Shown here: piece by piece, positions 9,131-54,718 of the stretch
How the letters are laid out: every line of letters begins with the position of its first letter
Numbering within the stretch: the stretch's first letter is position 1
From: Clostridia bacterium
GTDB taxonomy: Bacteria; Bacillota; Clostridia; UBA1212; UBA1255
Length of the DNA stretch: 64,000 nucleotides
Reading direction: 5' to 3'
Assembly: GCA_017560765.1 (NCBI GenBank)
Contig: JAFZEI010000015.1
Span: 397-64,396 of the forward strand
The notes under the pieces: generated by a model
Told to the model about the DNA's origin: nothing
The model's database searches: none
What the model saw: the letters and a program-made list of their open reading frames with translations, nothing else
Position numbers and translations under genes: made by a program

Positions 9131-12100
9131 TTACAAAAATATCGCCTCTTACAGGGAAACATCCCCACATAGCTCTTTGCACAAGAGAATCGGCCAACTC
9201 GTGTATCGGACTTACATAGTCTGAATTGTCAAAGACTGCTAAAACCATATCAAGTTTTATACCTCTGAAACTATAATAGCACCACATTCTTACTAATCTT
9301 TCAAGTCTTACAGCATTTTCGACTTTGCGTATCAAAACAGTAATTATAGGATTGTCGCCTGAAATACCGTAGCCCCATAAATGCTTTTTTGTTTTATCGT
9401 CATAATATTTTCTGCCGTAAAGTAATTTAGAAGCATAACTTCTGAAAAATTGCATATCTCCTTTTCTAAAAGAAATATGTTCTTTTTCTATGAGGCAACG
9501 CGTCCTTGCCAATTCAAAAATACGTTGTGTGTTGGCAAAACTGTTAATTTCTGTAAAAGCAGTCTCTTTATTCTGATTCATGCCCATAACAAGCGAAAAA
9601 ACTGCATTTTCTCCGGCTTCGACACGCAACTTAAGATTTACTGCAAAGCATGGATTTAAAACGGTTCCAGCTATGCCTGATAACAAAAAGTCAGAACTAC
9701 CGTTTCTTCCCTTAAAAGAAAGTACATCAGTGTCATACATTATTGATTCCACCTGTTTTTTGCTTTCAGAAGAAACATCCACATAAAAGTAACTTTCCAC
9801 ATGATTATCCGTCGGCTTATGCTTTCGCCTTGTTGCCAAAAGGCAAACACTTGAGCTTTCTGTCTTTACAGCTTTCGTGGTAATAAACATTCCCGAATAA
9901 GAAGGATGCGCCGCATACGAAGCAGGATAGTCCATCATAAGTCTGCAATACAATGTTATGTTTTCATACAGCTCATTTTTCCCTTTGTTTGTAATTTTAA
10001 AAATACGAACTTCTGCGTTATCTTCCGTTGCTACACATATACTTTGTGTTACTTCCTCTTGTTTTGTAAGGTAGAGATATTCACCGCTCCCGGAATAAAC
10101 AGTACATTTTACAGGTTTCATCATTTCACCATTTAAATAAAACACAATACCCTCAGGTAAAATTTGTTCTCTGTGAACATCAATGCCCATCCCGCATAGG
10201 GAAGAATAGCTGTTTCCCTGACCGTTGATTACCACACTGTATTTACCATTTGACAGTACATGAGCATCGTGTCCGGAAATGCAAACGTACTGTTCCTGCT
10301 GTTTTTCTTCACCTGAAGGTTCTTTACGGACAAGCTCATTTTTCGTCTTTGAAGCGTGTTTTTTAAATGCTTTTTTAGGGAACTTTTCTGTAAGCATTAC
10401 TTTAACCGGTTGCATCATTGCCATGTCGCTCAAGCCTTTTGATACCATTTCGTCAAAAAGCAAGTTTGCAATGCCGCATAAAGCCATACCCACATGATGT
10501 GCCATAAAACTTTCTACAATGCCTTTTCTTCCCGGAGTAAAGTCAATTGCCTCGTAATAACCATATTTTCCCTCTGTTCCCAATCGTGACAACAGCTCCA
10601 TATTACTGAATACTGCTTGTGGCGTAATGCTGCTTGCCATTAGACTTGCATAAGGTGCTACAACTGCATCGTCATTATGCATTCTCTTGACTGCCAAAGA
10701 TTTTAGGCCAAAAGCTTTGTATTTATAATTCATATTTATATCAAGCGCATTATAACCTGATTCTGAAATACCCCAAGGTTTATCTCCCGCAAGACTTTGC
10801 TGAATTTCCAGCATTTCATAAATCGATTTATTTAAAGCCGAACCGCAAGGCGACGGCACAAACAATTCAGGCAATACATATTCAAAAACAGTTCCGGACC
10901 AAGAAAGAAGCACATTGCCATCTTCATTACATCTGCGTGCAAGAGCAGAAAAGTGTTCCGCCTCCACATCACCCTTTGCCATGGCCACATAAGAAGTCAG
11001 CCGCGCCTCCGACATAATCATATCATAAAAAGAATTTGAAAATTCCCCCGTACTGTAATTATAACCTATACATAAATGCCTATGCTTATCGTTATACAGA
11101 ATGCCAAAATCCATTGCCAAAGCCATATTTTTCATTCTGGCTGCCAGAATTTTTTTATCCTCATATAAATTAAAAACACCTTGTGTAATATTTTTTTCTG
11201 CATTAACAAGCATTTCTTTCAAATTACAGCGAAAAGAATGGGCGTCTGCCTTTTCGTTCTTTACAGGCGCAACAAGCTCTTTATAATATTGTATTACTCT
11301 CAGAAATTCTTCTTTTGTATAATTATCTTTATTTAAGAATTCTTCTAAAACCCATATTTCTGCTGTATTTCCTTTTTCTGCAAATTCGTTTAAACAACAT
11401 ACTGTATCGTACAGACCTTCAGCAGATTTTTTTATATAATCTTCTGTTGTCTCCACTTCATTTATTGAATTTATCAGTGAAGACGCTGCCAACAGGCAAG
11501 CAGCAAGATTGCCGCTGTCTACACAAGAAACGTATTTTGGTTCCAGAACCTGCAAAGACATTGTGTCATACCAATTAAAAATATGCCCGTTCCACTTGTC
11601 CATTCTGTCTAAGGTATTCATAATTTTTTCTAAACGAACAAGCATTTCTCCTTGAGATATATAACCGAAGTGTTGTGCAATTACAGTAGAAACTATCAAA
11701 AAACCAATATTTGTAGGAGATGTTCTGTGGGCTACCGAATACACCGGCGAAAATTGCACATTGTCAGGGGGCAGAAAATTATCGCTTTCTACGGCATAAT
11801 CGTAATAAAAAGCCCATATTTTTCTTGCATTAATACGAAATTTCTTTATTTGAAGCTTTGTAAGTTTTTTAGATTTATTTCCGTATCTTTGTTTAATTGT
11901 TTTTTTAGAACAAACATAAGCTCCCCACGGTCCTAAAATCCACAATACACTTGGAATTCCAAACAAAAAAGGCGCCATAACAGCTGCCGAAGCAAAATTT
12001 ATCCACATTGTTCTGTTATAGTAAGCTAATGTATTTTGTATGCTTTTGTCAGCATCAGAGGAAACAACCCATTCCAGCATTTTCTGTCTGCTGCGAAAAG

Positions 12101-14543
12101 TTCTCCACACCGCACGTATCATACCATCTGCATGAACAAGGAAAGTGTGTGGAAGCAGTATAAAATTGCTTAGTACTCGCATGATTCTTGGTACGAATCT
12201 ACCTCCCGATGTGATTAACAGTGTACCTGTAACGATAAAAACCCATAAAAAGGCATCACGGCGAAGAAAAAGCATTCCTATCACAAAAACCATAAAAAGA
12301 GCTACAGGCAACAAACTTCTTAATAAATTCATTCCGATTTTAAAACGCGAGTAAAAATTAAGAGGATTATTTTTTAATACACCTTTTTCGTTTTCAAATC
12401 TTTTTCCCAAAAAAGGAAGTAACTGCCAATCTCCTCTTATCCACCTATGCTCTCTTTTAATATATCCACCGTAGCTGCGGGGAAAACTGTCATATAAATG
12501 AACATCCGAAACAAATGCAGTTCTTACAAAGGAACCTTCCAAAAGGTCGTGGCTTAATATACTGTTTCTTTTAAATCTCCCATCAAGAACACCATTGAAA
12601 ACATAAGGATCATACATGCCCTTTCCCGTATATATTCCCTCTGCGCAAACATCAAAATAAAAATCTGATGTTTTGCATCCGTATGAATCAAATCCCACTT
12701 CATCACTGTAAATTTTTTCAAAAATTGTTGTATTTTCTCTGTCGAGTCCTGATGGGGATATTGCAGGCTGCAAAAGCCCGTAACCCTTTGTCACCACGGG
12801 TTCACCTTTTACATAACTTATCTGCGGACGGTTTAAAGGATGATACATAATTTGCGCCATTTTGACAGCCGTATTTATTGGAATTACTGAGTCCGCATCT
12901 ACTGTCAGCACATAATTCACTTTTGGCAACTCACCTTTAATAATTGCTCTGTTAAGCTCAATAAGTGCACCTCTTTTTCTCTCATACCCCATCCATTTAT
13001 TGTCTTCTTTATAAAAATCTCTTTCCCTGACAAGTATACAAAAACGTTCACCTAACTTTTCTGTTTCTGTCTTTGCATACTGAATGAGTTCCCTGTCTTC
13101 CGGTGTGGTTTTTGTGGTACTTTCAGGTAAATCTGCCAACAAAGTATACCAAATCCCCTCTTGAGGATTTGCCCAATATGCCGCCTCCAATTGCTTAATC
13201 ATTTCGTCTACTCGTTTTTTTGAGGTTATCATACATGGCAAAACTATCATAATTTTACAATCCTCAGGTAATTTACCATGAAATTCCATTTCCGGCAGCG
13301 AAAACGGCATCTTCCTGTCCGTGTACATTTTCTGTATCAATGACAAAGAAATATTCATTGACGCAATTAATATAAGCAAAACGCAAAAGGCTCCTAAAAA
13401 TATTCCGAATATACCGTAAAGTTCCATAGAAAGCCCATACGCATAAACTCCGGGGCAAAAGGCCAAAACGGCAGAAGTAAACAAGAACATAACAAAAAAA
13501 GAGCCAAAGTCATTATGCTTTGTATAGTCCTCATATATAAAATCCCCTACATGAGCCTGCCGGTTTTGAGCCTTTTCCAATACTTCCAATGCATATTTTT
13601 CGGGAGAGGTATGTTTGCGTTTTGCACATACTTGTACAATACGCAAATATTCACGTCTTGACTTGGATGTCATTTTGTTAAAAATTCCCGTGGGATCTTT
13701 GCGTAAAATCTGCTCTGTAACACAAAGCTCAGACATAATTTTATCCCAATCCAGTGACGGCAAATCCCTTAGACTTTTTATGGCATTTCCCATAGAAACA
13801 CCTAATGAAATTCTCGTTCTGTGTTCTCTTTCTATCAGCTCTTCAACCGTTGTTCCTTTTGCTGCCAGCTTACCGGAAAGAGCAGTTCTTATTGTGTCAT
13901 TCTGTTCTAATTCAGCAGACAACCGAAGTACAGTTTCGGCAAAAACAGGCGTTATCATATCTGCATTATCAAACAAAACAGCTGCACTTCTCATGCGCTG
14001 CCCATTTTCCGTAGTGTAAGAAGAAAACTCTCTGAAAATTTTCTCGGCTGTTTTTCTGTCTTTGTATATTTTATCCGAAATTTTACAAATTTCTGCAATT
14101 CTCTTAATAAGTGCCACTTGTAGCATACATGGCAAAAACGTAAGAGACTCGGTATCTATTGGTCTTATTTTTTCATACGACGTTACAAAATCCAATATTT
14201 CCCGCTGCCCAATGCAGCCATCTGTATGCGAAGCAATTTCCGCCGCCAAATCATAAACAGGTAAAATTTTACGACTGTATTCTTCGTTTTTTACACTTTC
14301 GGCAGCCTCATTTACAACATGATAATTGTCAGCTATCCACTCGTCCGACGGAATACTTTGCAATTTTTGCGTATTTTCGCCATCTGACATAATTCTGCTG
14401 TATGTTTCATCTATACTTCCACTGCATTTTTCTATTGACGGAATGCTCCTTACGCCGTATCTGCCTTGCAAATGCTTTTCTCCGATATTTGCAGCATGCT
14501 TTATATATTCTTTTCCCGTTAATAATGTATCCTCAAGAATCAT
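9063..14543 (-). CDS. Cyclic beta-1,2-glucan synthase-like protein, N-terminal part (GT84 glycosyltransferase, membrane segments, start of GH94 region)
   Basis: 1826 aa. TM helices surround a GT84-like domain (YERKRGALIELNRAI, YVLTVDADSVIP, HRWIRGDWQLLPF), followed by GH94 N-terminal/barrel-like sequence. The frame ends at 9063 and overlaps the next ORF. Confidence 0.7.
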   Translation of the reverse strand: MILEDTLLTGKEYIKHAANIGEKHLQGRYGVRSIPSIEKCSGSIDETYSRIMSDGENTQKLQSIPSDEWIADNYHVVNEAAESVKNEEYSRKILPVYDLAAEIASHTDGCIGQREILDFVTSYEKIRPIDTESLTFLPCMLQVALIKRIAEICKISDKIYKDRKTAEKIFREFSSYTTENGQRMRSAAVLFDNADMITPVFAETVLRLSAELEQNDTIRTALSGKLAAKGTTVEELIEREHRTRISLGVSMGNAIKSLRDLPSLDWDKIMSELCVTEQILRKDPTGIFNKMTSKSRREYLRIVQVCAKRKHTSPEKYALEVLEKAQNRQAHVGDFIYEDYTKHNDFGSFFVMFLFTSAVLAFCPGVYAYGLSMELYGIFGIFLGAFCVLLILIASMNISLSLIQKMYTDRKMPFSLPEMEFHGKLPEDCKIMIVLPCMITSKKRVDEMIKQLEAAYWANPQEGIWYTLLADLPESTTKTTPEDRELIQYAKTETEKLGERFCILVRERDFYKEDNKWMGYERKRGALIELNRAIIKGELPKVNYVLTVDADSVIPINTAVKMAQIMYHPLNRPQISYVKGEPVVTKGYGLLQPAISPSGLDRENTTIFEKIYSDEVGFDSYGCKTSDFYFDVCAEGIYTGKGMYDPYVFNGVLDGRFKRNSILSHDLLEGSFVRTAFVSDVHLYDSFPRSYGGYIKREHRWIRGDWQLLPFLGKRFENEKGVLKNNPLNFYSRFKIGMNLLRSLLPVALFMVFVIGMLFLRRDAFLWVFIVTGTLLITSGGRFVPRIMRVLSNFILLPHTFLVHADGMIRAVWRTFRSRQKMLEWVVSSDADKSIQNTLAYYNRTMWINFASAAVMAPFLFGIPSVLWILGPWGAYVCSKKTIKQRYGNKSKKLTKLQIKKFRINARKIWAFYYDYAVESDNFLPPDNVQFSPVYSVAHRTSPTNIGFLIVSTVIAQHFGYISQGEMLVRLEKIMNTLDRMDKWNGHIFNWYDTMSLQVLEPKYVSCVDSGNLAACLLAASSLINSINEVETTEDYIKKSAEGLYDTVCCLNEFAEKGNTAEIWVLEEFLNKDNYTKEEFLRVIQYYKELVAPVKNEKADAHSFRCNLKEMLVNAEKNITQGVFNLYEDKKILAARMKNMALAMDFGILYNDKHRHLCIGYNYSTGEFSNSFYDMIMSEARLTSYVAMAKGDVEAEHFSALARRCNEDGNVLLSWSGTVFEYVLPELFVPSPCGSALNKSIYEMLEIQQSLAGDKPWGISESGYNALDINMNYKYKAFGLKSLAVKRMHNDDAVVAPYASLMASSITPQAVFSNMELLSRLGTEGKYGYYEAIDFTPGRKGIVESFMAHHVGMALCGIANLLFDEMVSKGLSDMAMMQPVKVMLTEKFPKKAFKKHASKTKNELVRKEPSGEEKQQEQYVCISGHDAHVLSNGKYSVVINGQGNSYSSLCGMGIDVHREQILPEGIVFYLNGEMMKPVKCTVYSGSGEYLYLTKQEEVTQSICVATEDNAEVRIFKITNKGKNELYENITLYCRLMMDYPASYAAHPSYSGMFITTKAVKTESSSVCLLATRRKHKPTDNHVESYFYVDVSSESKKQVESIMYDTDVLSFKGRNGSSDFLLSGIAGTVLNPCFAVNLKLRVEAGENAVFSLVMGMNQNKETAFTEINSFANTQRIFELARTRCLIEKEHISFRKGDMQFFRSYASKLLYGRKYYDDKTKKHLWGYGISGDNPIITVLIRKVENAVRLERLVRMWCYYSFRGIKLDMVLAVFDNSDYVSPIHELADSLVQRAMWGCFPVRGDIFVIVPKDSNGAAPIIEASNLVFWL

Positions 14544-42288: not shown

Positions 42289-42326
42289 AAAAAAAGACAG
42301 TTTCGCGGGAAACTGTCTTTTAAAAA
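42289..42326. terminator. Rho-independent terminator (hairpin GACAGTTTC-GCGG-GAAACTGTC flanked by A/T runs)
   Basis: Read directly. Terminates the minus-strand gene 42344..43108. Confidence 0.6.
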
Positions 42327-42343
42327 CACGCTATTTTAACAGA

Positions 42344-43108
42344 TTATGCAAAAATCTTCTTTTTTGCAACTACAGTCAATGCCAAGGCAGCAATTACAAC
42401 CAAGAAAACAACACTTACATCTCCTGAATTGGGATTCTTGTTGGGATCTTGTGGCTTTGTTTCGTCTTTATCTGTGTCTGTATTTGTATCTTTATCTGTA
42501 TCTGTGTCTGTGTCGGCATCATTATCTGTATCGCCCTCACCTGCGGAAATATATGCCTGAGCTTCTTCCACAGTTTTAAACATAGCTACCCAGTCAACAT
42601 CAACTACCGCACCGCTTGCGTTTACAGGATCAATTCTAAACCATTTTACTTCGTCTACCCACTTGTCTAATGATGATCCGTCAGCAATTACATACTGCCA
42701 GTCAGTATTCTCTGCATCAATATCTCCTGTGGCACAAGCAGCTCCGCCTTTGATAAGAATCTGAAGTCTCATATTGTCTGCAGGAGTTACAATTCTCATT
42801 TTTGCAACAACTACCTTGAGAGTATTACAATCAATCGGATCTAATCCCGCACTTGTAATATCTCCTGCATGAGCGCCGGCTGATGATGTACCGGGATAAA
42901 TATATCCGTCTCCGCTCTTATCAGTTAAAGTAACATATTCATCCTCTACTTTAATTGTAGAAACAGTAGGTATTGTAAGACCTTCATCTGCGCCTTGCTC
43001 TGCACTACCTAAATCCCAAAACCATCCCGGTTCTGCTGCGAAAGCCGGAACAACACTTGCACTTAAAATAAGTACAACCATAATCATTAAAGCAACTAAT
43101 TTTTTCAT
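42344..43108 (-). CDS. Secreted/surface protein with acidic (DT)n linker and C-terminal TM anchor with KKK tail
   Basis: Signal peptide (MKKLVALMIMVVLILSASVVPAFA). The N-terminal domain is homologous to the N-terminus of the 50451..54587 protein. It ends with a DTDTDTDKDTNTDTDKDET repeat, NPNSGD, a hydrophobic segment and KKKIFA. Confidence 0.6.
   Translation of the reverse strand: MKKLVALMIMVVLILSASVVPAFAAEPGWFWDLGSAEQGADEGLTIPTVSTIKVEDEYVTLTDKSGDGYIYPGTSSAGAHAGDITSAGLDPIDCNTLKVVVAKMRIVTPADNMRLQILIKGGAACATGDIDAENTDWQYVIADGSSLDKWVDEVKWFRIDPVNASGAVVDVDWVAMFKTVEEAQAYISAGEGDTDNDADTDTDTDKDTNTDTDKDETKPQDPNKNPNSGDVSVVFLVVIAALALTVVAKKKIFA
42420..42545. repeat. Coding microsatellite-like repeat (GTATCTGTGTCTGTnTC units) encoding the (D-T/K/N)n acidic linker
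   Basis: Tandem degenerate 6-nt units are visible in the sequence. The antisense ORFs (ICICICV) are artefacts of the repeat. Confidence 0.6.
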
Positions 43109-43251
43109 TTTTGCCTCCTCCTAATTTTTAAAAATTATCTAATCTAGATTCATAATCCACAGTATATTTCAATGCATCGGATATGTCAATTGTAATTTTT
43201 TTCTTCGATTTGCATATACTTACAATAAAACTATAGGAGAAGAAGATATTT

Positions 43252-44127
43252 ATGAAAGATGGATACTATTACTTTTTACCTGCCTATTTAGAAAAGGAAA
43301 AATCTAACAAATATGAAGCTGACAAGTCTTTAGGATATATTTCAATCACATGTGCTCCCGATCGGCATGTTTTTTCTATTCAATGTAGTCTAAACAAAGA
43401 TAAAATTCAGGCTATTGCCAACAGACGCACTCCGATTGAGCTTTACATAAGTCCCGTAACTTATGTAACAAACACATCTGTGTATATCGGTCGCTTTTCT
43501 CTCTCTTCTAAAAATCATTTGTTTTTAGACGCCTCCTTATCAAGCAGGCAAATACTTCCGGAAGAAGACAACCAATACATAATTGTCACTTCCGGCGGCA
43601 GAACATTGATATACTCTCTCATACAAGAAAAACGTCCCGAACCGGTTATAACCGATGAGACTCATTCTGCAAATACCTTCGGAGAAATATTTGATCCTTT
43701 TAACACTACCAATCCTGCCTATAAATGGTTTATACATTATGCCAAAAGCCAAGGCGAGCTGGAAAGAATATTCCGTACATTAAAAATACACCCGGAAATG
43801 TTCGGGAAAATTAATAACTATAATACCGGATTTTCGTCTGATACATTCATTAAAACGGCATACTACGCTCTTCGCGTAACAGGGCACATTTTGCGAGGTG
43901 AATACAGCGATCCGATAAGTGATAGATTTTTTACAGTTATAGGCTTACCCGGCTGGAATATTCGAAACAGAAAAAAATCCGCCCCTTCCATTCGCATATA
44001 CGCTCGCTGGATTACAGCCCAAAACAAGCCTGCAAAGCTTAACGCCGGCAACTACAATGGATATTGGCTATATTACTTTGATAAAGAAACGGGTTATCCT
44101 GTAAAAGCCGTTCTTAAAAATAATTAA
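43252..44127 (+). CDS. Hypothetical protein
   Basis: 291-aa ORF with an AGGAGAAG RBS-like sequence upstream. No recognisable motifs. Confidence 0.45.
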   Translation: MKDGYYYFLPAYLEKEKSNKYEADKSLGYISITCAPDRHVFSIQCSLNKDKIQAIANRRTPIELYISPVTYVTNTSVYIGRFSLSSKNHLFLDASLSSRQILPEEDNQYIIVTSGGRTLIYSLIQEKRPEPVITDETHSANTFGEIFDPFNTTNPAYKWFIHYAKSQGELERIFRTLKIHPEMFGKINNYNTGFSSDTFIKTAYYALRVTGHILRGEYSDPISDRFFTVIGLPGWNIRNRKKSAPSIRIYARWITAQNKPAKLNAGNYNGYWLYYFDKETGYPVKAVLKNN

Positions 44128-44627
44128 AGAAACATGCATACTATTCCGGCTGATATTGCCGAAATAAAATTTGCTGTTAATGCTGCCGGAAGTACTCCCG
44201 GCAATTTTCTTATTTTTGTTTTCTCTGTATACACTGCCATTGTGTAAAATATTGTTTCTGTAGAGCCCATCATTACACAAGCCGTTCTTGCTTCGTATGA
44301 ATCCGCTCCGCATTTTGTCATTATATCTCTCAATGTTGCTAAGGACGCACTGCCCGAAACCGGTCTTATAAGCACAAGAGGAAAAATTTCTCCGTTTATT
44401 CCTATTTTCTTTAGGACAGGTGATGCAAAATCCACTAAAAACTCTAATATTCCCGAATCTCTGAAAACTCCTATTGCTACAATTAAGCCTATTAAGGAGG
44501 GAACTAATTTTATTATTGTCACTGCACCGTCTTTTGCGCCTTTTACAAAACTGTCAAAGCACGCCACCCCTTTTATAAAACCTATGATAACTATTATTAA
44601 AACAAATACAGGCAATATGTATGTCAT
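44124..44627 (-). CDS. spmB: Spore maturation protein B (nucleoside-transporter/Gate-domain membrane protein)
   Basis: 167-aa membrane protein overlapping spmA by 4 nt. Matches the SpmB family pattern. Confidence 0.75.
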   Translation of the reverse strand: MTYILPVFVLIIVIIGFIKGVACFDSFVKGAKDGAVTIIKLVPSLIGLIVAIGVFRDSGILEFLVDFASPVLKKIGINGEIFPLVLIRPVSGSASLATLRDIMTKCGADSYEARTACVMMGSTETIFYTMAVYTEKTKIRKLPGVLPAALTANFISAISAGIVCMFL

Positions 44628-45208
44628 ACTTTTCCCCCTTTTCGAAAAAACAACTTATTGCATATCACAAAAACAGTTAAAGAAAAAATCATCGAAACTA
44701 TAGAAACTATCCATGTTGGGATTAAAATATCCACAGGGGCAGAGGCACCTAATTCTGCACGCATCGCAATAACTGTAGTTGGGAGTAATTGAATTCCTGC
44801 AGAATTTATTACAAGAAACAAACAAACATCTTTTATGTTATTTTGCATTTCAGCAACTGCCTCTATTCCTGAAGGTGTCGCTCCGTTTCCTAATCCAAGA
44901 AAATTTGCAGCAAAATTTGTAACAATTGCATTTTGCGCTTTTTCATTCTTTCTTGCAGACGGAAAAAGGCTCGATATTATAGGTTTAACAATTTTCGAAA
45001 ACCATTTTACAGCCCCTGCATCTTCAAGTATTTTTATAATCCCACACCAAAGGGAAACAATTCCAATTAGCCCCACCGCAAATTCTACTGCCTCCTTTGC
45101 CGACGATATAATGCTGTTCATAATCATATCTGTCTTACCCAAAGCAATGCTTCCTCCGATACCAATTATCATAAGCAGAACCCATATAATATTAAGCATT
45201 TTCATCAC
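44624..45208 (-). CDS. spmA: Spore maturation protein A
   Basis: 194-aa membrane protein. Has the SpmA family pattern (GIIKILEDAG...NFLGLGNGATP). Confidence 0.75.
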   Translation of the reverse strand: MMKMLNIIWVLLMIIGIGGSIALGKTDMIMNSIISSAKEAVEFAVGLIGIVSLWCGIIKILEDAGAVKWFSKIVKPIISSLFPSARKNEKAQNAIVTNFAANFLGLGNGATPSGIEAVAEMQNNIKDVCLFLVINSAGIQLLPTTVIAMRAELGASAPVDILIPTWIVSIVSMIFSLTVFVICNKLFFRKGGKV

Positions 45209-45313
45209 CTCTAAATCGAAACATCTTTTTAAATATATGTTTCCTTATTCGGTTATATGCACTTTTGGTTTTCCATTTTTTGGCAAATAGCACGGGAAAT
45301 ATTTCCCATAAAT

Positions 45314-45342
45314 TTGACATTATTCAACAATTTTGTTAATAT
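45314..45342 (+). promoter_or_regulatory. Sigma-A promoter of the abrB-like gene (TTGACA-17-TAATAT), followed by TTCGTCA (Spo0A-box-like) and a palindrome
   Basis: Read directly: TTGACA at 45314..45319, TAATAT at 45337..45342, TTCGTCA at 45343..45349, ACATTCAgtTGAATGT at 45349..45364. Confidence 0.5.
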
Positions 45343-45389
45343 TTCGTCACATTCAGTTGAATGTTTTTTCTATATAAGGAGGTAAAAAA

Positions 45390-45650
45390 ATGAAATCAAC
45401 AGGAATTGTAAGAAGAGTAGACAAATTAGGACGCATAGTAATTCCAATGGAGTTAAGAAAGGTGTTGAATATTTCAAATCGCGATGCAATAGAAATATTT
45501 TCTCAAGATAATACACTCATATTAAGAAAATATGAGCCTTCATGTATTTTTTGCGGTAACGCCACAAATGTAACAACATACAAGGGCATTAATATATGTC
45601 CGGAATGCATCATGAGGATGCAAAAATATATAAAAAAGAACGCAGTTTAA
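45390..45650 (+). CDS. abrB: AbrB/SpoVT-family transition-state regulator-like protein with C-terminal 4-Cys (CxxC...CxxC) tail
   Basis: N-terminus MKSTGIVRRVDKLGRIVIPMELRKVLNI is almost identical to the AbrB swapped-hairpin DNA-binding domain. The C-terminus CIFCGN-x17-CPEC is atypical. Confidence 0.75.
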   Translation: MKSTGIVRRVDKLGRIVIPMELRKVLNISNRDAIEIFSQDNTLILRKYEPSCIFCGNATNVTTYKGINICPECIMRMQKYIKKNAV

Positions 45651-45699
45651 TAGTTTCCCCCAACTGTTCTCCCTCTGTTGTCTTTTCGTTCAAGGCAAC

Positions 45700-45748
45700 A
45701 AAAAAGCCCTTGAAATTATCAATCGATAATTCAAGGGCATTTTTTTAT
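45700..45748. terminator. Bidirectional rho-independent terminator (abrB-like / tuf)
   Basis: AAAAAA-GCCCTTGAATTATC-loop-GATAATTCAAGGGC-ATTTTTTT. Confidence 0.7.
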
Positions 45749-45770
45749 TATCTAGTAATATTATTTAATA

Positions 45771-46979
45771 TTATTCAATAATTTTAGCAACAGCGCCGGC
45801 ACCAACTGTTCTACCACCTTCACGGATAGCGAAACGGAGACCTTCTTCCATAGCGATAGGAGTGATAAGTTTAACTTCCATCTCGATGTTATCACCGGGC
45901 ATTACCATTTCTACTCCCTCAGGAAGTTGGATAACACCTGTAACGTCTGTTGTTCTGAAGTAGAACTGAGGTCTGTAATTGCTGAAGAATGGTGAGTGAC
46001 GTCCACCCTCATCCTTAGTCAATACGTAAACTTGACCTTTGAAGTGTGTATGAGGTTGAATTGTACCGGGTTTAACAAGAACCTGTCCTCTTTCGATTTC
46101 TGTTCTCTGAATACCTCTTAAGAGTACACCGATGTTGTCGCCTGCTTCAGCTTGATCGAGTTGTTTACGGAACATCTCAACACCTGTTACAACTGTGCTC
46201 AACTTCTCATCGCTGAGACCAACGATTTCTGCAGGATCACCAACTTTGATAACACCTCTTTCAAGACGACCTGTAGCAACAGTACCACGTCCTGTGATTG
46301 TGAATACGTCCTCAACAGGCATAAGGAAAGGCTTATCTGTAGGTCTCTCAGGTGTAGGAATGTAGCTGTCTACAGCATCCATAAGCTCTTTGATGCAAGC
46401 GTACTCAGGTGCATTTGAATCAGAATTTGCGCACTGGAGAGCTGTAAGAGCAGAACCTCTGATAATCGGAATCTCATCTCCGGGGAACTCATATGAGCTG
46501 AGAAGCTCTCTGATTTCCATCTCAGCGAGGTCGAGGAGCTCTTCGTCGCCTTCGTCGATCATGTCACATTTGTTCATGAATACAACGATGTAAGGAACGC
46601 CAACCTGACGAGCAAGAAGAATGTGCTCTCTTGTCTGAGCCTGCGGGCCATCAGGACCTGAAACGAGAAGGATAGCACCGTCCATCTGAGCTGCACCTGT
46701 GATCATGTTCTTAACATAGTCAGCATGTCCGGGGCAGTCAACGTGAGCATAGTGTCTTGTAGCTGTCTCATACTCAACGTGTGCTGTATTAATAGTAATA
46801 CCTCTTTCTCTCTCCTCGGGAGCGCCGTCGATTTCGTCATATGCTTTTGCTTCAGCAGCACCGTCTAAAGAAAGAGTCTTTGTGATAGCGGCAGTCAATG
46901 TTGTCTTACCGTGGTCAACGTGACCAATTGTACCGATATTTACGTGGGGTTTTGTTCTTACGAACTTAGCTTTTGCCAT
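45771..46979 (-). CDS. tuf: Elongation factor Tu
   Basis: [19 protein letters not shown]-motifs. 402 aa. Confidence 0.98.
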
Positions 46980-47094
46980 TTTAAATCCTCCTTAAATAAT
47001 AAAATAATCAAAATAATTGAAAATGTGTCCTTTTTGTATATTACACTTTTTCATTTTTTTTTGCAAGTATATTTTTGTGCTTGTAAATCAAGCA

Positions 47095-49185
47095 TTACTC
47101 TGCATTTCTCTGTTTGAGAACTGCTTCCTGTACGCTCTTAGGCACTTCCTCGTAGTGGCTGGGTTCCATGATAAATGAACCTCTACCCTGTGTGCTTGAA
47201 CGAAGTGTTGTTGTATAACCGAACATCTCGGCTAACGGACAATGTGCAGAAATAACCTTGCTGCCTGCAACATCCTCCATACCCTCAATCTTACCACGCT
47301 TAGCACTTACAGAACCGATGATATCACCTAAATATTCCTCAGGAACATTTACGCTAACCTTCATGATAGGTTCGAGAAGTACAGGATCAGCTTTCTTACA
47401 AGCTTCTTTAATTGCCATTGAACCGGCAATCTTAAACGCCATTTCTGAGGAGTCAACCTCGTGGTATGAACCATCAACAAGAGTTACTCTAACGTCTACC
47501 ATAGGATAGCCGGCAATGATACCGCTTTGAAGAGCTTCCTGAATACCCTGGTCAACAGGTCCGATATATTCCTTAGGAATTACGCCGCCCACAATCTTGT
47601 TAACGAACTCATAGCCTTTACCTCTTTCAAGGGGCTCAACCTCGATAACACAGTGACCGTATTGACCACGACCACCTGACTGGCGAACAAATTTACCTTC
47701 TTGGCGAACAGGTTTACGAATACCCTCTTTATAAGCAACTTGTGGGTTACCTACGTTAGCTTCTACCTTAAATTCACGAAGCAATCTGTCAACAATAATT
47801 TCCAGGTGAAGCTCACCCATACCGGAAATGATTGTTTGTCCTGTCTCATGATCTGTACGTACTCTGAATGTAGGGTCTTCCTCTGACAGTTTCTGAAGGG
47901 CAATACCCATCTTCTCCTGTCCTGCTTTTGTCTTAGGCTCAACTGCAACTGAAATAACCGGATCAGGGAACTCCATTGTCTCAAGAACAATAGGAGCACT
48001 GTCGTCACAAAGTGTGTCGCCTGTTGTTGTATCCTTTAAGCCAACTGCAGCAGCAATATCTCCTGCATATACACGGGTAATTTCTTCTCTGTGGTTAGCA
48101 TGCATCTGAACGATACGTCCTATACGCTCTTTTTTACCCTTTGTTGCATTGTATACATAAGAACCTGCTTCTAAAGATCCCGAATATACACGGAAGAAGC
48201 AAAGCTTACCTACAAACGGGTCTGTAACAATCTTAAATGCTAATGCAGCGAAAGGCTCATCATCACTTGAGTGACGAACTGCTTCTTCTCCTGTATCAGC
48301 AAGAACACCGTTAATAGCCGGAATATCTGTAGGTGCAGGCATATAATCAACAACTGCATCAAGAAGCTGTTGAACACCCTTGTTTCTATAAGAAGAACCA
48401 CAAAGAACAGGGATCATCTTAACAGCAATAGTAGCTTTACGGATTGCTCTCTTGATTTCTTCAACTGTCACTTCTTCGCCTTCGAGGTATTTCATCATAA
48501 CCTCTTCGTCTTGGTCCGCAACAGCCTCGAGTAATTCCATACGATATTGCTCTGCAAGTTCCTTCATATCCTCAGGAATTTCTTCGATTTCCATTACCTT
48601 ACCAAGATCGTCCTTGTATACGATTGCATGCATCTCAACAAGGTCGATGATACCTACGAATGAATCTTCTTTACCTATGGGCAATTGGAGCGGAACTGCG
48701 TTCGCACCTAATCTGTTGCGGATCATGTCTACACAACGGTAGAAATCCGCACCCATAATGTCCATTTTGTTTACATAACCCATACGTGGAACACCGTACT
48801 TGTCAGCCTGTCTCCAAACAGTCTCTGACTGAGGCTCAACACCACCCTTTGCACAGAACAAAGTAACGCTACCATCGAGAACACGCAATGAACGCTCAAC
48901 CTCTACTGTGAAGTCAACGTGTCCCGGTGTGTCAATGATGTTGATTCTTGTGTTCTTCCACTGTGCTGTTGTAGCAGCAGAAGTAATTGTAATACCTCTT
49001 TCCTGCTCCTGTGCCATGTAGTCCATGGTAGCAGCACCGTCATGTGTTTCACCGATTTTGTGTGTACGTCCGGTATAGAACAAAATTCTCTCTGTTGTAG
49101 TTGTTTTACCGGCGTCGATATGGGCCATAATTCCTATGTTTCTGGTATTTTCCAAACTAAATTGTCTAGGCATTATTTTCTCCAT
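47095..49185 (-). CDS. fusA: Elongation factor G
   Basis: [17 protein letters not shown]. 696 aa. Confidence 0.98.
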
Positions 49186-49237
49186 TTCTTAGTTTAAAAC
49201 TAAACTCACACTACTGCACATAATTTCCTTAAAGAAA

Positions 49238-49708
49238 TTACCAACGGTAATGAGCAAACGCACGGTTTGCTTCTGCCATTTTGTGCATATCTTCTTTTCT
49301 TCTTACTGCGCCGCCTGCATTATTAAGTGCATCCATAAGCTCGCCTGCAAGACGCTCTGCCATTGTTCTTTCGCTTCTCTTACGAGCAAAAGTAACAACC
49401 CATCTGAGACCAAGTGCTTGACGTCTTTCGGGTCTAACCTCGATAGGTACCTGATATGTGGCACCACCAACACGTCTTGCTTTAACTTCTAACTGGGGCA
49501 TGATGTTATTGAGAGCTTCTCTGAAAACTTCTAAAGGTTCTCTGCCGGTTTTTTCACGGATGATTTCAAAGGCATCATAGCAAATTCTCTGTGCTACACC
49601 TTTCTTACCATCTAACATGATGTTGTTTATAAGTTTTGTAACAACTTGATCGTTGTATATAGGATCAGGCAGAACCTCTCTCTTCGCAATATATCCTTTT
49701 CTAGGCAT
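49238..49708 (-). CDS. rpsG: 30S ribosomal protein S7
   Basis: 156 aa with the S7 signature. Confidence 0.97.
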
Positions 49709-49845
49709 TTAAACTTCCCTCCTTTTAATGATAAGTGATCATTTGGTACTCTGCATTTTTTCAGCAGTACATGCCGGCTTCTTTTCATATGATATATCAC
49801 GCTAAAAATGAAATCTATATGAATCACCGGCGATCCGGTTAATAA

Positions 49846-50268
49846 TTATTTTTTAGCTGCTTTCGGTACCTTAGCACCGTACTTTGATCTACCCTGCATA
49901 CGGTTGTTAACACCTGCTGTATCAAGAGTACCTCTGATAATATGGTATCTTACACCAGGGAGATCTTTAACTCTACCGCCTCTTATAAGAACAACGCTAT
50001 GCTCTTGAAGGTTATGTCCGATACCCGGAATATATGCAGTAACTTCCATACCGTTTGTGAGACGTACTCTGGCAATTTTACGCAAAGCAGAGTTAGGTTT
50101 TTTAGGTGTAGTTGTTCTTACAACTGAACAAACTCCTCTCTTTTGCGGACTGCTGATGTCAGTGCTTCTCTTTGTTAAGCTGTTAAAGCCTTTTTGAAGA
50201 GCAGGAGAAGTGGACTTCTTTTCAATTGTCTGTCTACCCTTACGAACCAATTGGTTAAATGTTGGCAT
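49846..50268 (-). CDS. rpsL: 30S ribosomal protein S12
   Basis: 140 aa. PNSALRK motif. Confidence 0.97.
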
Positions 50269-50343
50269 TCAATTTCACCTCCGATTTTATTTTATGTTTT
50301 CTTGTACAAAACAGCAAAAATGCTACAAGTGCACAAGCTTTGT

Positions 50344-50374
50344 AATTGTACACGAGACAATGCTTATTGTCAAC
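50344..50374 (-). promoter_or_regulatory. Candidate sigma-A promoter of the rpsL-rpsG-fusA-tuf operon (TTGACA-17-TACAAT on the minus strand)
   Basis: Read directly on the reverse complement, about 75 nt upstream of the rpsL ATG. Confidence 0.45.
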
Positions 50375-50384
50375 ACTTAATGTC

Positions 50385-50424
50385 AAAAAATAACGGAGCC
50401 GATTATCGTGAAATAATCGGCTCC
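50385..50424 (-). terminator. Rho-independent terminator after the 1378-aa gene
   Basis: Hairpin GGAGCCGATTAT-loop-ATAATCGGCTCC followed, on the minus strand, by GTTATTTTTT. Confidence 0.65.
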
Positions 50425-50450
50425 ATCTTTAAACGACTATTCGTTTGCAA

Positions 50451-53400
50451 TTATTTTGGAACTCTGTATGCAAAACGGAATTGGTTTGTACTCTTGTCTA
50501 TAGTCTCATACGAAGGTTGTACTGATCTTATTCTGGAATCACTACCCGCATCGTATCTATATGAGTAACCTCCATCATAGTCACTGGCAATAATGAATAC
50601 GTGTCTCGGATAGTTAGAATATGCAGGAGCAAAGCTTCCCGTATAACCAACGAATACAATATCACCTGCTTTAAGTGAACTCAGTGATGTTACCTTAGTA
50701 AATCCGTAGCGCAAAAGGAATGTTTCAAGACTGATAATATTTGCGCCGGAGTTACCGTAAAGTGAAAGTCCTTCTTTAGAAGGCTGATGTGCTGTATAGC
50801 CTGCATTACCCATGAGCCAACCTATAAATCTGTCACAAGATACATGCTTGTATGATTTGTCAAGATATGGGTTAACTGTAGAGTGTCCGTATACCCAGCC
50901 ATTTACTCTTGCATAGTCTGCAACAGATTTAGCATGAGTAAGAAGTTTTGCAACTTTCTGTCCGTGTTTAGCATAAACAAATGCACCGTTTTGATCATAT
51001 ACTGCATAACCTGTTGTTGAATTCTCATTTGCTTTTGCAACCGCAGCATTATAATCAGTATATACTCCGCCGATTTGCGCACCTAAATCATTCTTTACAT
51101 ACCATGAAATATTTTCTGCTGTTCTATCTGCTATAAAGAAGCGTTGATTTTCTTCGCCATAGTAAGTATAGAGTTGAACATTTGTTCCGCTTGTGTAATC
51201 TGCATTAGAAACATCCAAAGCCATTTTGTCACAATGAGCAGGACGGAAAGCATATGTTGTTTCTTGAATATACAGGTACCATTGCTGAGAAAGGCTATCA
51301 TTGCAGTTCTCCGTAACAATATTTGTTACATCTGTCACACCGGCTCCGCTTACAGCCAAAGCTTTATCATTACTCTCGTTGACAATTCTGTAAGCACCAT
51401 TGTCAAGTCGTATGAATTTCCAAAGTTGACTTGATGAAGCAGCCGGAGTAGCAAGCTGAACATTAGTACCTGAAACAGCAAGAGATTTACCTCCAACAGT
51501 TATATGCGCAAAGAAATTCGTACCAACATCTGCAGGCGTCAATTTATTAAATGTACTTGTTTGTGTATTCAAATAATTTACTGCAGCGTCACCATATTTA
51601 ATTATTTTTTCAGTGATATCAACGAGTTTTGCATCTGTACCACTCTGTGATGAATAAACATACGACTCAATGCTATATTCAAATGTTCCGCTTATTGCTT
51701 TACCAGTACTGTCACAAACAGTGAGTTTCACTGTTTTGCTCATCTGCGATGCACCTAATCCATCAAAAACAAATGCATATACAGGTGTACCGGCAGGTCC
51801 TGTTACAGTTGAAAAGGCATCTTGTTTTACAGTTCCCAACAAATTATTGCTTGTATCCGTTACCTTAACATATACATTTGATAAATCTGTATCAAAATAT
51901 CCTTTGATTGCAACTTTATTATCAAGATAAAGTCCCATCGCTAACCAAGTAGCTTTATCGCCGGAAGCTACAGTAGGCGCTTTTTTCACATTTGTGAGAG
52001 CTCTTAAATCACTTGTGCCAAATTTCTTCTGAGCTGTTGTCAAATTTGCACTAACAAGTTTGTCTACATTATATCCATTATAAATCTGTGCTGATGCTCC
52101 GTAATTAAGCATATCAACAAGCAATGTCTTAAAAGATGGATCCGTTGCCGATGCAAGTTTAGAATAAATATATGTAGCCACACTATATTGGTTCGTCTTA
52201 CTTGAATATACAACTCCGTCTTTAGTTGCTTTTAATGTTGTAAAAATAGCGTCGTTCATCATCTGAGGCGCCACGTTGTTAAATGAGAATAAATAACAAG
52301 CAACTCCGCCGACAGAGGATGTTACTGGATTAAGAGTAATTGTTTTTCCGCCAAAAGTCGCCTCAAGATAAGGATTTGAAAAACCTGCAGCATCAAAGAT
52401 ATCTTTCTTTACAAGATATTTAATTGTAATATCACTTGAAATTGAAAGTGTTGTACCATCAATTTTAAGTGCAGTGTCTTTTACTTTAACAAAACCAGAG
52501 TCTGTTATAAATTGGTCTGTAATATCAGAAGAACCTGATGTTGCACTGTTTACAGTAACCATTACATCGTTATCGCCCAAATTAGCGTTACTGTTTACTT
52601 TAAACTCTATGTAAGCAATAGTTCCGGTTGCTGTTGTGTTAGCAGTACCTTTCCAAGATAATTCATATGAATATGTTGTTTTTGTTGCTTTGAAAACAGC
52701 ATTTCCCATTACGATACCATTTGTCGCTTTTACTGGAGTCAAAACGCTTGGATCCCATTTTACATTAACTACAAGATTCTTTAATCCGGGGTTATTTCCT
52801 AATACAACAGGAACTTTTACCGTGCCGCCAATATTTGCCTCAACATCATCTGCATATATATCAGCCGATTTTGCAACATCAGTCACTGTAAAATATACCT
52901 TGCTGCCTTTTGGAGAAGTGTCTCTCATTATTACAGCATAGTAGTTACCTGCTGAAAGCCTCGGCAAGGAAACTGTCTTTTCGCCGCTAAGATTAATTCT
53001 GTGCATAGGATTTGCCGTTCCCATACCTGAACCGCACTCTTCACCATCATTATAGATACCCAACCAAAGATTGCTTGTAATTGAATCTCCGTAATTAATT
53101 GTTGCTTTAAGATTTCCTGTTTCGCTTACAGTAGTTGAATTAAGTGTAAGAGAAGGATCTACCGTACCTTCATATCCATAATATATGTTATCAATATTAA
53201 ATGCTCTGAAGCGAGAACCAATTGCCATAGATTTTACATAAGAAATCATTGCATTTGATGTTGTAGCCTTTAAATTGCCATTTGCATCATAAATAGTTGC
53301 TGTTCTGTAATATCTCTCGTTATATGCGTCTGATGAGCTTGGTAAAAGACCGGGATCAGCATAAGTTACAAATGCAAATACTTCTCCGTCAAGAGCAAAT

Positions 53401-54587
53401 CTCATTTTTCCACGTCCGTCATCTATCGCTTTGAATTTATGGAAAGCTGTATCAATATAACTTGTGAGCGGATGTGTGTATTTTATTTGAGACAAAGTTC
53501 CCGAAGCTGCATTATATGTTATTACACAAACTTCAATCATAGAAGGATGAATATTTACACTTACACCACTCTTACCTACAGAGTTTTCTCCGTCCACTTT
53601 ATTTGATTCGAAAAACTTATTGTCTTTCCAATCTTTTTCATAGCCATAATTGAATACAAATCCTGCAAAGTGACCAGCTGCTGTTTCCGGCTTTACATCT
53701 GCTGAGAATAAATAAGCACATCCGTTATTGAAGAATTTATTTACCTGCATACTGTCATATTTCAACTTAAGGTACTTATTTGTTCCTTCTACAACGTATT
53801 CGGAATCTCCTGTTCCTGCATTAAACAAGAATTCACCATTAATATTTGTTTTGCTTCCGATAAGTGCAAGACCATTCGTTACTGCAGCTTCTTGGAAATC
53901 ATATGATGTCTTTGGTACATAATGCAAACCATGAGGTATAATGTCAACTCTGCCGGATTTTACATCTGTATAAACCTTACAGAACAAATCATCATATTCT
54001 TGTGCCTGTGCTACACTGTCAAAGAAACCTATATATGCCACATCAACTGTTTTGCCTGCAACTGATGACGCACCGATTCTCATTGATGTAATTGTAGCAT
54101 TAAGCTGTGCTGATGTACCAACAGAACTTGTTGACGAACCCATTAACTCTTTTGATAAGTTGTATGTGGTAAGATTCCATACGCCGTCGCAAACCAGCTT
54201 GCTGGTAGATATAACTCCGCCTGCGGCAGGACCCCAACCACCGGCTGTTGTATCGGGATAAAGCCAAGGGTTACTGATTGATGTATTAATATCTCCCTTG
54301 TACTTAATTGCCATAATCTTACCGCTCATGCTTGTATCTACAAGATTTACTGTAAAATACGGGTCGTTAGCATCTGTCGTTTTAATGGAAACATACTCAT
54401 CTTTGTATGTGTATGTTATTCCACTCGACGATGTATCAATAATTAGTTTGTGATTACCTTCCGCAAAAGATGTTACTCCCTTGTATGAACTCAGCTCCGC
54501 TGCCAACAATACATTAGTTGAGGGCAACATACTAAATACCATCACAAAAACAAGTAACAGCGAAAGAAACTTCATTCCTCGTTTCAT
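50451..54587 (-). CDS. Large secreted multidomain protein: novel N-terminal module, cohesin-like module, ricin-B (QxW) lectin domain, C-terminal NlpC/P60-like cysteine peptidase/amidase-like domain
   Basis: Signal peptide MKFLSLLLVFVMVFSMLPSTNVLLAA. Cohesin-like stretch (GGTVKVPVVLGNNPGLKNLVVNVKWDPSVL...IAYIEFKV). QLWKF/QQWYL/QRFFI beta-trefoil repeats. C-terminal Cys...GDIVFVGY...HVFIIASD pattern. Strong RBS AAAAGGAGAG. Confidence 0.7.
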   Translation of the reverse strand: MKRGMKFLSLLLVFVMVFSMLPSTNVLLAAELSSYKGVTSFAEGNHKLIIDTSSSGITYTYKDEYVSIKTTDANDPYFTVNLVDTSMSGKIMAIKYKGDINTSISNPWLYPDTTAGGWGPAAGGVISTSKLVCDGVWNLTTYNLSKELMGSSTSSVGTSAQLNATITSMRIGASSVAGKTVDVAYIGFFDSVAQAQEYDDLFCKVYTDVKSGRVDIIPHGLHYVPKTSYDFQEAAVTNGLALIGSKTNINGEFLFNAGTGDSEYVVEGTNKYLKLKYDSMQVNKFFNNGCAYLFSADVKPETAAGHFAGFVFNYGYEKDWKDNKFFESNKVDGENSVGKSGVSVNIHPSMIEVCVITYNAASGTLSQIKYTHPLTSYIDTAFHKFKAIDDGRGKMRFALDGEVFAFVTYADPGLLPSSSDAYNERYYRTATIYDANGNLKATTSNAMISYVKSMAIGSRFRAFNIDNIYYGYEGTVDPSLTLNSTTVSETGNLKATINYGDSITSNLWLGIYNDGEECGSGMGTANPMHRINLSGEKTVSLPRLSAGNYYAVIMRDTSPKGSKVYFTVTDVAKSADIYADDVEANIGGTVKVPVVLGNNPGLKNLVVNVKWDPSVLTPVKATNGIVMGNAVFKATKTTYSYELSWKGTANTTATGTIAYIEFKVNSNANLGDNDVMVTVNSATSGSSDITDQFITDSGFVKVKDTALKIDGTTLSISSDITIKYLVKKDIFDAAGFSNPYLEATFGGKTITLNPVTSSVGGVACYLFSFNNVAPQMMNDAIFTTLKATKDGVVYSSKTNQYSVATYIYSKLASATDPSFKTLLVDMLNYGASAQIYNGYNVDKLVSANLTTAQKKFGTSDLRALTNVKKAPTVASGDKATWLAMGLYLDNKVAIKGYFDTDLSNVYVKVTDTSNNLLGTVKQDAFSTVTGPAGTPVYAFVFDGLGASQMSKTVKLTVCDSTGKAISGTFEYSIESYVYSSQSGTDAKLVDITEKIIKYGDAAVNYLNTQTSTFNKLTPADVGTNFFAHITVGGKSLAVSGTNVQLATPAASSSQLWKFIRLDNGAYRIVNESNDKALAVSGAGVTDVTNIVTENCNDSLSQQWYLYIQETTYAFRPAHCDKMALDVSNADYTSGTNVQLYTYYGEENQRFFIADRTAENISWYVKNDLGAQIGGVYTDYNAAVAKANENSTTGYAVYDQNGAFVYAKHGQKVAKLLTHAKSVADYARVNGWVYGHSTVNPYLDKSYKHVSCDRFIGWLMGNAGYTAHQPSKEGLSLYGNSGANIISLETFLLRYGFTKVTSLSSLKAGDIVFVGYTGSFAPAYSNYPRHVFIIASDYDGGYSYRYDAGSDSRIRSVQPSYETIDKSTNQFRFAYRVPK

Positions 54588-54647
54588 AAAAACTCTCCTT
54601 TTTTAAAATTTTATAGGTTTGATATCAACAAAAACCTTCATTTGGTA

Positions 54648-54678
54648 TTATGATATATTACAAATATTTTTTTGTCAA
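54648..54678 (-). promoter_or_regulatory. Candidate sigma-A promoter of the 1378-aa gene (TTGACA-17-TATCAT on the minus strand)
   Basis: Read directly on the reverse complement: tgtcaa at 54673..54678 and atgata at 54650..54655. Confidence 0.45.
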
Positions 54679-54680
54679 TA

Positions 54681-54718
54681 AAAAAAGCCGCACAACCTTT
54701 TAAGTTGTACGGCCAAAA
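54681..54718 (-). terminator. Rho-independent terminator of rpoC
   Basis: Hairpin GCCGTACAAC-TTAAAA-GGTTGTGCGGC followed by TTTTTTT on the minus strand. Confidence 0.65.

Follow-up and report, generated by a model that had tools for sequence, protein, structure and literature searches.

Do a short anchored protein and a very large multi-domain protein, encoded near each other in an uncultured Clostridia bacterium, carry the same domain, and if so, what would that domain do? The question arises from a stretch of 64,000 nucleotides, hereafter the window, taken from the forward strand of contig JAFZEI010000015.1 (assembly GCA_017560765.1, positions 397-64,396; lineage UBA1212; UBA1255). Protein A is encoded by an open reading frame (ORF) of 254 residues at 42344..43108 on the minus strand, and protein B by an ORF of 1378 residues at 50451..54587, also on the minus strand. 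Both N-termini are signal-peptide-like when read by eye. A preliminary description of this DNA had singled out two secreted ORFs of these lengths, and their coordinates, strand and lengths were all verified. It had also proposed that the two proteins align over about 150 residues behind their signal peptides. Refined boundaries place this module at residues ~44-191 of A and ~54-203 of B. An exact look-up of the B sequence returned no record. The two copies are located as follows.

42530..43036, minus strand: mature N-terminal region of A (residues 25-193), with the module core at residues ~44-191, ending VVDVDWVAMFKTVEEAQAY
53979..54428, minus strand: shared module of B (residues 54-203), ending TVDVAYIGFFDSVAQAQEYDDLFC

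A domain family that links A and B

The connection between A and B runs through intermediates, which were supplied by the iterative search that had been proposed as a check. When 1.84 billion representative proteins were searched exhaustively with HMMER, a profile of four B-module sequences retrieved 28 of them at E<=0.001, many matching almost the whole module. Local iteration on relatives of the B module, with every A-family sequence left out, gave a family hidden Markov model (HMM) of ~140 positions that matches 48 module instances in B's relatives. This A-free HMM matches A with E=1.1e-8 (29.8 bits), and all other ORFs of the window give E>=0.4. The A cluster is missing from the 1.84-billion-protein search because 29.8 bits is not significant against a library that large. 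Because the A-B hypothesis was specified beforehand, the search space that counts here is a single protein or, at the widest, the 297 window ORFs. Alignment by hhalign against the family, from which close relatives of A and of B had been removed, gave a concordant result. For A alone the probability is 97.6% (E=4e-12), and the 117 aligned columns lie within residues 8-144 of a module of 148 residues; for B alone it is 99.5% (E=9e-23). The best of 30 shuffled A modules reached E=0.045. Profile comparison confirms that A and B are homologous through a shared domain family.

The family signature is ..EYVtvT..DPYF..yiAiKYR..DGeWHl..D...lRlD....G..iDiAYiGFF.S.eeA.aY., and the family alignment contains one invariant Trp and one nearly invariant Arg. 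The motifs by which the resemblance was first noticed fall into register: EYVTLT of A aligns correctly with EYVSIKT of B, as do the similar endings VVDVDWVAMFKTVEEAQAY and TVDVAYIGFFDSVAQAQEYDDLFC. A shared Cys-containing middle section had been described as well, and this part must be withdrawn. The cysteines are not homologous, since C132 of B (LVCDGVW) pairs with AENTDW of A. C94 of A lies within a 17-residue insertion, and C125 of A is Ser in close relatives.

Structure prediction, another of the proposed checks, was carried out with AlphaFold2 and yields a CBM-type beta-jelly-roll (CBM, carbohydrate-binding module) for both proteins. The model of B residues 54-203, made with the 29-sequence family alignment, has a predicted local distance difference test score (pLDDT) of 96.1 and a predicted template modelling score (pTM) of 0.89. 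It consists of nine main strands and a C-terminal helix, the helix being the 'AQAQEY' part of the ending motif. The model of A residues 25-193 (pLDDT 76, pTM 0.78) has its elements in the same order as in B, with the insertion disordered; A's 17-residue insertion falls between strands 3 and 4. Each predicted strand of A is aligned with one predicted strand of B. The predicted models form a two-sheet beta-sandwich that can be superposed on known galactose-binding-domain-like members, and the A and B models retrieve largely overlapping top structures. The structural neighbours include CBM29, the laminarin-binding X584, CBM22, CBM15, CBM86, CBM8, CBM11 and CBM4, and the top-ranked ones are mostly experimentally characterised CBMs. 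Non-lectin jelly rolls are also found among them, namely the complex I assembly factor CIA30, CFAP20, reelin and MAM domains. The best matches in a viral structure library are phage tail-fibre and tail-tip proteins, with TM-scores of up to 0.66. According to these models, the module folds into a beta-jelly-roll like that of type-B carbohydrate-binding modules, or galactose-binding-like domains, and is closed by the conserved last strand and the helix.

The family libraries do not contain this domain, in agreement with the preliminary description, which did not recognise it. A Pfam-A scan of 29 diverse module sequences at E<=1 returned scattered single matches and no consistent family. Within the two proteins themselves, Pfam-A finds no family in A and only Ricin-B in B. 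Scans of NCBIfam and of PHROG likewise gave nothing consistent for the module, and the family profile matched none of the PDB chain sequences, even at E<=10. By sequence, the module belongs to no existing CBM family in Pfam, NCBIfam or the PDB, which cover those CAZy families that have a Pfam model or a structure. The NCBI names of members are 'hypothetical protein [Clostridia bacterium]' or refer to other domains only (RICIN, SLH). The module appears to be a sequence family not catalogued in the libraries searched (Pfam, NCBIfam, PHROGs, PDB). Two candidate affiliations were considered and rejected. Homology to the 'Dabb' alpha/beta-barrel was suggested by Pfam matches in the relatives P0025 and P0037, which are marginal, lie on the strand-helix motif and contain no independently significant stretch. 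A phage origin was set aside because there is no PHROG match and identities in the viral structure library are just 8-18%.

Surface display and the case for a binding head

Relatives found in genome and metagenome scans come solely from metagenome-assembled genomes (MAGs) of uncultured Clostridia, Eubacteriales and Oscillospiraceae or from gut metagenomes. Their sources include water-deer colon and rectum MAGs and human gut and giraffe metagenomes. The module had been suspected of being lineage-specific, and this distribution bears the suspicion out. Module copies occur singly or in tandem arrays of two to seven, with seven in P0037, five in P0021, four in each of P0024 and P0036, and three in P0025. 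At locus L004, three neighbouring genes with four, one and two modules lie beside a gene for a cohesin protein (L004 4592..5476). The N-termini of the family proteins are signal-peptide-like when read by eye, and the recognised partner domains, listed below, are all extracytoplasmic or cell-surface domains.

B, P0011, P0012: Ricin-B domain (library scan)
P0022, L010, L016: dockerin, above cut-off (library scan)
P0035: SLH domain (library scan)
P0036: PA14 domain (library scan)
L005: Listeria-Bacteroides repeat (library scan)
L018: BNR repeats (library scan)
L012: LPXTG-type anchor, PPVTGD (TIGR01167, 24.1 bits against a curated cut-off of 15.9)

The only glycan-related partners are Ricin-B, PA14 and the BNR repeats. 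The BNR protein of L018 (2..2359), a relative of metagenome origin, has one module followed by three units of ~170 residues, each with a BNR/Asp-box-like S.DGGKTW motif (Pfam BNR, E=2e-7); nothing else hints at a connection with BNR glycosidases, sialidase-like or other. A further link to carbohydrate-active enzymes was considered through P0035, whose C-terminal 409 residues look hydrolase-like by eye; it was dropped, as this region has no PDB-sequence or Pfam match. The layout of A, with a signal peptide, one module, an acidic linker, a transmembrane (TM) helix and a basic tail, is repeated in P0027, P0028, P0029 and P0033, and the NPxSGD motif of A is found again in P0028 and P0033. Tails of another type, GC[GKN]S followed by a TM helix and KKK(D), occur in several members (L004 5604..13357, L003 1846..3465, P0023 and P0025). 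They resemble MYXO-CTERM-type sorting domains weakly, with E-values of 0.005-0.4 that lie below cut-offs, and they may represent a distinct C-terminal sorting signal in these Clostridia. In B, P0017, P0022 and P0023, a second uncharacterised domain comes right after the module. Residues 579-698 of B are weakly cohesin-like, matching a cellulosomal scaffoldin cohesin (6kgc/6kg8) at a sub-threshold E=0.09-0.11 with no Pfam cohesin match. Together with the dockerin-bearing relatives and the cohesin neighbour at L004, this region suggests that the family belongs to cohesin-dockerin surface assemblies.

We consider it reasonably probable that the CBM-fold domain shared by A and B is a surface domain that serves as a binding head, with a glycan as the most probable ligand. 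The module would be a surface-displayed binding unit, and the glycan would most likely come from the host, the diet or a bacterial cell wall. Protein A would present its one copy at a distance from the wall, on the acidic Asp/Thr linker, and would be attached through the class-B-sortase-like NPNSGD motif, TM helix and KKK. Protein B, a large multi-domain protein with a Ricin-B lectin domain and the weakly cohesin-like region, would carry the module as its distal N-terminal head. In relatives with tandem copies, binding would gain avidity through multivalency. If the module is indeed a binding head, the chance that its ligand is a carbohydrate is about evenly balanced.

Several observations weigh against this reading. 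All structural neighbours share just 5-14% identity with the module, and the fold also serves structural and protein-protein interaction roles. The conserved residues mostly look like core or structural positions. The AlphaFold2 model of A was steered by the family-dominated alignment and does not count as independent evidence. The first 108 residues of A, taken alone, match the family only weakly by sequence (E=0.004), though collinearly and in the correct register. The tail of A reaches no curated sortase-signal cut-off, including those of TIGR01167 and NF033846. Finally, Pfam recognises no glycoside hydrolase (GH), polysaccharide lyase (PL), carbohydrate esterase (CE) or glycosyltransferase (GT) domain in ~40 family proteins, and this argues against a classical enzyme-appended CBM. 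In the sense used by CAZy, a CBM is a contiguous module within a carbohydrate-active enzyme, and the family proteins scanned do not show that arrangement. The earlier suggestion of a surface or carbohydrate-binding module is supported as far as the cell-surface partners and the CBM-type predicted fold go, and the strict label 'CBM' is not established.

A more specific proposal sees in the module the founder of a new family of lectins or CBMs with a glycan specificity of its own; host mucin, dietary fibre and polymers of bacterial walls are examples of possible targets. In uncultured gut Clostridia the module would then be deployed independently of enzymes, on sortase-anchored stalks, in multivalent arrays and on dockerin-bearing subunits, and it would make up the adhesive layer of cellulosome-like surface assemblies. 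We regard this extension as tentative, a possibility on the doubtful side.

The main competing explanation accepts the shared module as real and regards it as a structural or protein-protein interaction unit that does not bind glycans. It could be a spacer, a unit of S-layer or cellulosome-like assembly, or an interface for the second domain found in B, P0017, P0022 and P0023. The absence of fusions to a recognised carbohydrate-active catalytic domain is in its favour. Conservation peaks in the last strand and the C-terminal helix and not in an obvious aromatic platform, the module is kept in a pair with the second domain, and it co-occurs with cohesin and dockerin assembly modules. The non-lectin jelly rolls among its neighbours point the same way. 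However, the top-ranked neighbours are mostly characterised CBMs, and single anchored copies like that of A, as well as arrays with as many as seven modules, are more in keeping with adhesins or lectins than with spacers. The partner domains Ricin-B and PA14 also suggest that these proteins recognise glycans. We judge a structural or protein-interaction role without glycan binding to be unlikely, and retain the binding head as the preferred interpretation.

Extent of the similarity between A and B

How much of the module A and B have in common is a separate question, and direct comparison of the two proteins answers it poorly. BLASTP gives a 29-residue high-scoring segment pair over the C-terminal motif (E=0.001) and a second, collinear N-terminal one (E=0.022). 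The Smith-Waterman score of 55 compares with a shuffle mean of 33.4 (z=3.9), and one shuffle in 1000 attained it. Aligned globally, the two proteins show no significant similarity (z=1.6). In phmmer, A and B are each other's best non-self match among the 297 window ORFs, at E=0.09-0.2. A shallow profile of A aligned by hhalign with a shallow profile of B gives 35 columns at 55% probability. Word-indexed homologue searches found near-identical sequences only with the A module, four close relatives with the B module, and one match with the 29-sequence family alignment. Pairwise statistics alone are borderline and leave the ~150-residue alignment unproven. The pairwise check that had been proposed for this alignment is borderline locally and not significant globally, and similarity beyond the C-terminal motif is supported by the 117 hhalign columns. 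A third module copy in the window was looked for with the A-free family HMM and rejected, as no further ORF fell below E=0.4, and internal repeats of the module within B were rejected as well.

The signal is concentrated at the C-terminal end: the last 40 residues of A alone match the family at E=1.2e-11. This raises the possibility that only a C-terminal motif of ~40 residues (strand, strand, helix: fRiD...G..vDv.y..fF.sveeAqaY) is common to both proteins and that the regions upstream of it are unrelated. The much weaker value for the first 108 residues fits such a view, BLASTP, phmmer and the family HMM all align just the C-terminal stretch, and the model of A leans on the family alignment. 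But two strands and a helix of a beta-sandwich are unable to fold alone, and what precedes the motif in A is of the length expected for the module. The weak upstream match is collinear and in register, pairing residues 8-104 of A with 9-93 of the family at a score of 20.7, whereas 30 whole-module shuffles scored <=16.0. EYVTLT falls into line with its counterpart, as does the invariant Trp (DW in A, GVW in B), the predicted strands pair one for one, and the A model, with its pTM of 0.78, retrieves largely the same top structures as that of B. A relationship confined to the C-terminal motif is, in our judgement, very improbable. Homology over the full module is well supported, and not proven by sequence alone.

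Chance resemblance between compositionally similar secreted proteins would agree with the global z=1.6 and the phmmer E=0.09-0.2, but it is effectively refuted by the A-free profiles, with E=1e-8 for the HMM and E=4e-12 for hhalign, and by shuffle controls that stayed clean.

The two genes, their surroundings and related systems

Outside its module, protein A consists of short parts, and its gene is flanked by putative control signals.

43037..43108, minus strand: signal peptide of A (residues 1-24), MKKLVALMIMVVLILSASVVPAFA then AEPG, with a basic N-terminus, hydrophobic core and AFA-A cleavage-type site, by eye
42437..42529, minus strand: acidic Asp/Thr-rich linker of A (residues 194-224), from sequence
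42347..42436, minus strand: sorting-signal-like tail of A (residues 225-254), with NPNSGD, an 18-residue hydrophobic helix and KKKIFA
43161..43189, minus strand: promoter-like site upstream of gene A, TTGACA-17-TATACT, 11/12, consensus match only
42292..42321, minus strand: terminator-like hairpin just 3' of the gene A stop, 13 pairs and a T-run, consensus scan

With its near-consensus promoter-like site and hairpin terminator, gene A appears to be its own transcription unit. The protein had been described as anchored, and the C-terminal hydrophobic helix followed by KKK is indeed present. Sortase substrates have a signal peptide, a motif 17-45 residues from the C-terminus, a hydrophobic segment and a basic tail (PMC4155245). 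Class-B sortase motifs are 'variations of NPXTG or NPQTN', and SrtB of B. anthracis requires Asp at P2' (PMC11987632). The NPNSG-D of A lies 30 residues from the C-terminus, within the 17-45 range, and resembles the class-B motifs, with Asp at P2' but Ser where NPXTG has Thr; the overall layout agrees with the description of sortase substrates. The hydrophobic segment VSVVFLVVIAALALTVVA is followed by KKKIFA, and A has the hydrophobic stretch and at least two basic residues described for such substrates (PMC4155245). Its tail resembles sortase-substrate tails weakly (IsdC, E=0.001-0.004; EF0750_LPXTG, E=0.0009), with all matches below the curated cut-offs. No sortase gene was noticed in the 64-kb window, in which no search aimed at sortases was made. 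Covalent wall anchoring of A by a class-B-sortase-like signal is plausible but unproven, and a plain membrane anchor is the fallback.

Strains differ in the linker, whose length varies through DT-repeat indels among P0001-P0005. Among relatives of A that are at least 94% identical, 6 of the 15 module substitutions fall within residues 121-130 (42719..42748), where KGGAACATGDID contrasts with KSGAASATETVD. These residues form a predicted beta-hairpin and could be a variable loop exposed to ligands or to the immune system. The exact A protein is present on ten metagenome contigs. On all four contigs examined it lies in one and the same housekeeping neighbourhood, with tuf, two 'Gate'-domain membrane proteins (PF07670), rpiB, transketolase and PFOR. 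A divergent ORF of 291 residues (43252..44127, plus strand) lies 143 nucleotides upstream of gene A, has no signal peptide and no Pfam match, and is kept next to gene A on 4/4 A-bearing metagenome contigs examined.

Protein B is assembled from more and larger parts.

54429..54587, minus strand: signal peptide of B (1 to ~29/30) and short extension to residue 53, from sequence
53148..53978, minus strand: second domain (residues 204-480), no Pfam or library match
52494..52853, minus strand: weak cohesin-like region (residues 579-698), phmmer against PDB, sub-threshold
51126..51494, minus strand: Ricin-B-type beta-trefoil lectin domain (residues ~1032-1154), Pfam and PDB
50454..51125, minus strand: C-terminal 224 residues (1155-1378), no library match
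54714-54686, minus strand: terminator-like hairpin after rpoC, consensus scan
54678-54650, minus strand: promoter-like site for gene B, TTGACA-17-TATCAT, consensus scan
50392..50427, minus strand: terminator-like hairpin, 16 pairs and a T-run, between the gene B stop and the rpsL promoter-like site, consensus scan

The N-terminal extension is conserved in the close relatives of B only. The second domain matches the post-module regions of P0017, P0022 and P0023 at E=1.5e-17 to 2.6e-21 (phmmer), and residues 705-1030 are common to P0030 and P0036. The lectin domain is recognised by RicinB_lectin_2 (E=6e-25) and Ricin_B_lectin (E=1.3e-8) in Pfam and by ThreeFoil 3pg0 (E=8e-12) in the PDB. The C-terminal region 1155-1378 is common to P0011, P0012 and the small protein P0014. 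By eye, its Cys (VSCDRF) and downstream His (RHVFII) recall papain-like NlpC/P60 or CHAP wall hydrolases.

The rpoBC-str region is normally contiguous. Here gene B lies inside it, between rpoC and rpsL (window 50392..54714). Since it has its own near-consensus promoter-like site and hairpin terminators, gene B looks like an independent transcription unit inserted between rpoC and rpsL. Orthologues of B in two Clostridia MAGs (L001, L002) do not adjoin rpoC and are preceded by a paralogue of the B 702-1011 region.

Elsewhere in the window (6923..14543, minus strand), ORFs of 1826 residues (9063..14543) and 735 residues (6923..9130) overlap by 68 nucleotides. The longer one has weak GT2, glucoamylase-like and GH94 supersandwich matches, and the shorter one has a GH94 supersandwich and catalytic domain. 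Taken as a pair, they resemble a split cyclic beta-1,2-glucan synthase-type protein, and either a frameshift or a natural split could account for this.

Many CBM-like beta-sandwich families are known, and more are described regularly. The module is a new, uncatalogued sequence family with a well-known fold and functional class; it is fairly ordinary and reveals no new kind of biology. It is now named and delimited and has a confident predicted fold, and Pfam and NCBIfam are blind to it. This helps to annotate 'hypothetical protein' entries in MAGs of gut and rumen Clostridia, and the surface of uncultured gut Firmicutes gains a further candidate module for glycan recognition or adhesion. Residues 25-193 of A and 54-203 of B are boundaries that can be used for expression and screening.

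Compared with known systems, the module is closest in fold to CBM29 of Piromyces equi NCP1 (PDB 1gwk, 1wcu), and to CBM22, CBM4, CBM15, CBM11, CBM86 and X584, at 5-14% identity. In contrast to these type-B CBMs, the family has no recognised catalytic partner of the carbohydrate-active enzyme kind in the proteins scanned, and it is marked by a conserved C-terminal helix and by the signature iDiAYiGFF.S.eeA.aY. A second likeness, at 10-18% identity, is to CBM-like decoration domains of phage tail and capsid proteins: the 'Megatron' protein of siphophage R4C (8gtc_M), the turret of Haloferax tailed virus 1 (8qpg_TC) and tail-fibre proteins in BFVD. Unlike those, the family members are bacterial chromosomal proteins with signal-peptide-like N-termini and wall or membrane anchors. 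The third comparison is with small sortase-anchored surface proteins that have class-B-type signals, such as IsdC (NPQTN/NPKTG), NF033846 'Rumino_NPXTG' and the (S/P)PXTG-D substrates of C. difficile. Protein A is like class-B substrates in having a signal peptide, a globular domain, a low-complexity linker, NPNSG-D, a TM helix and KKK (PMC4155245, PMC11987632). It differs in having Ser instead of Thr at position 4 and in reaching no curated cut-off, and its globular domain is unrelated to NEAT. Other family members end in PPVTGD, in DTGD, or in GC[GKN]S with a TM helix and KKK.

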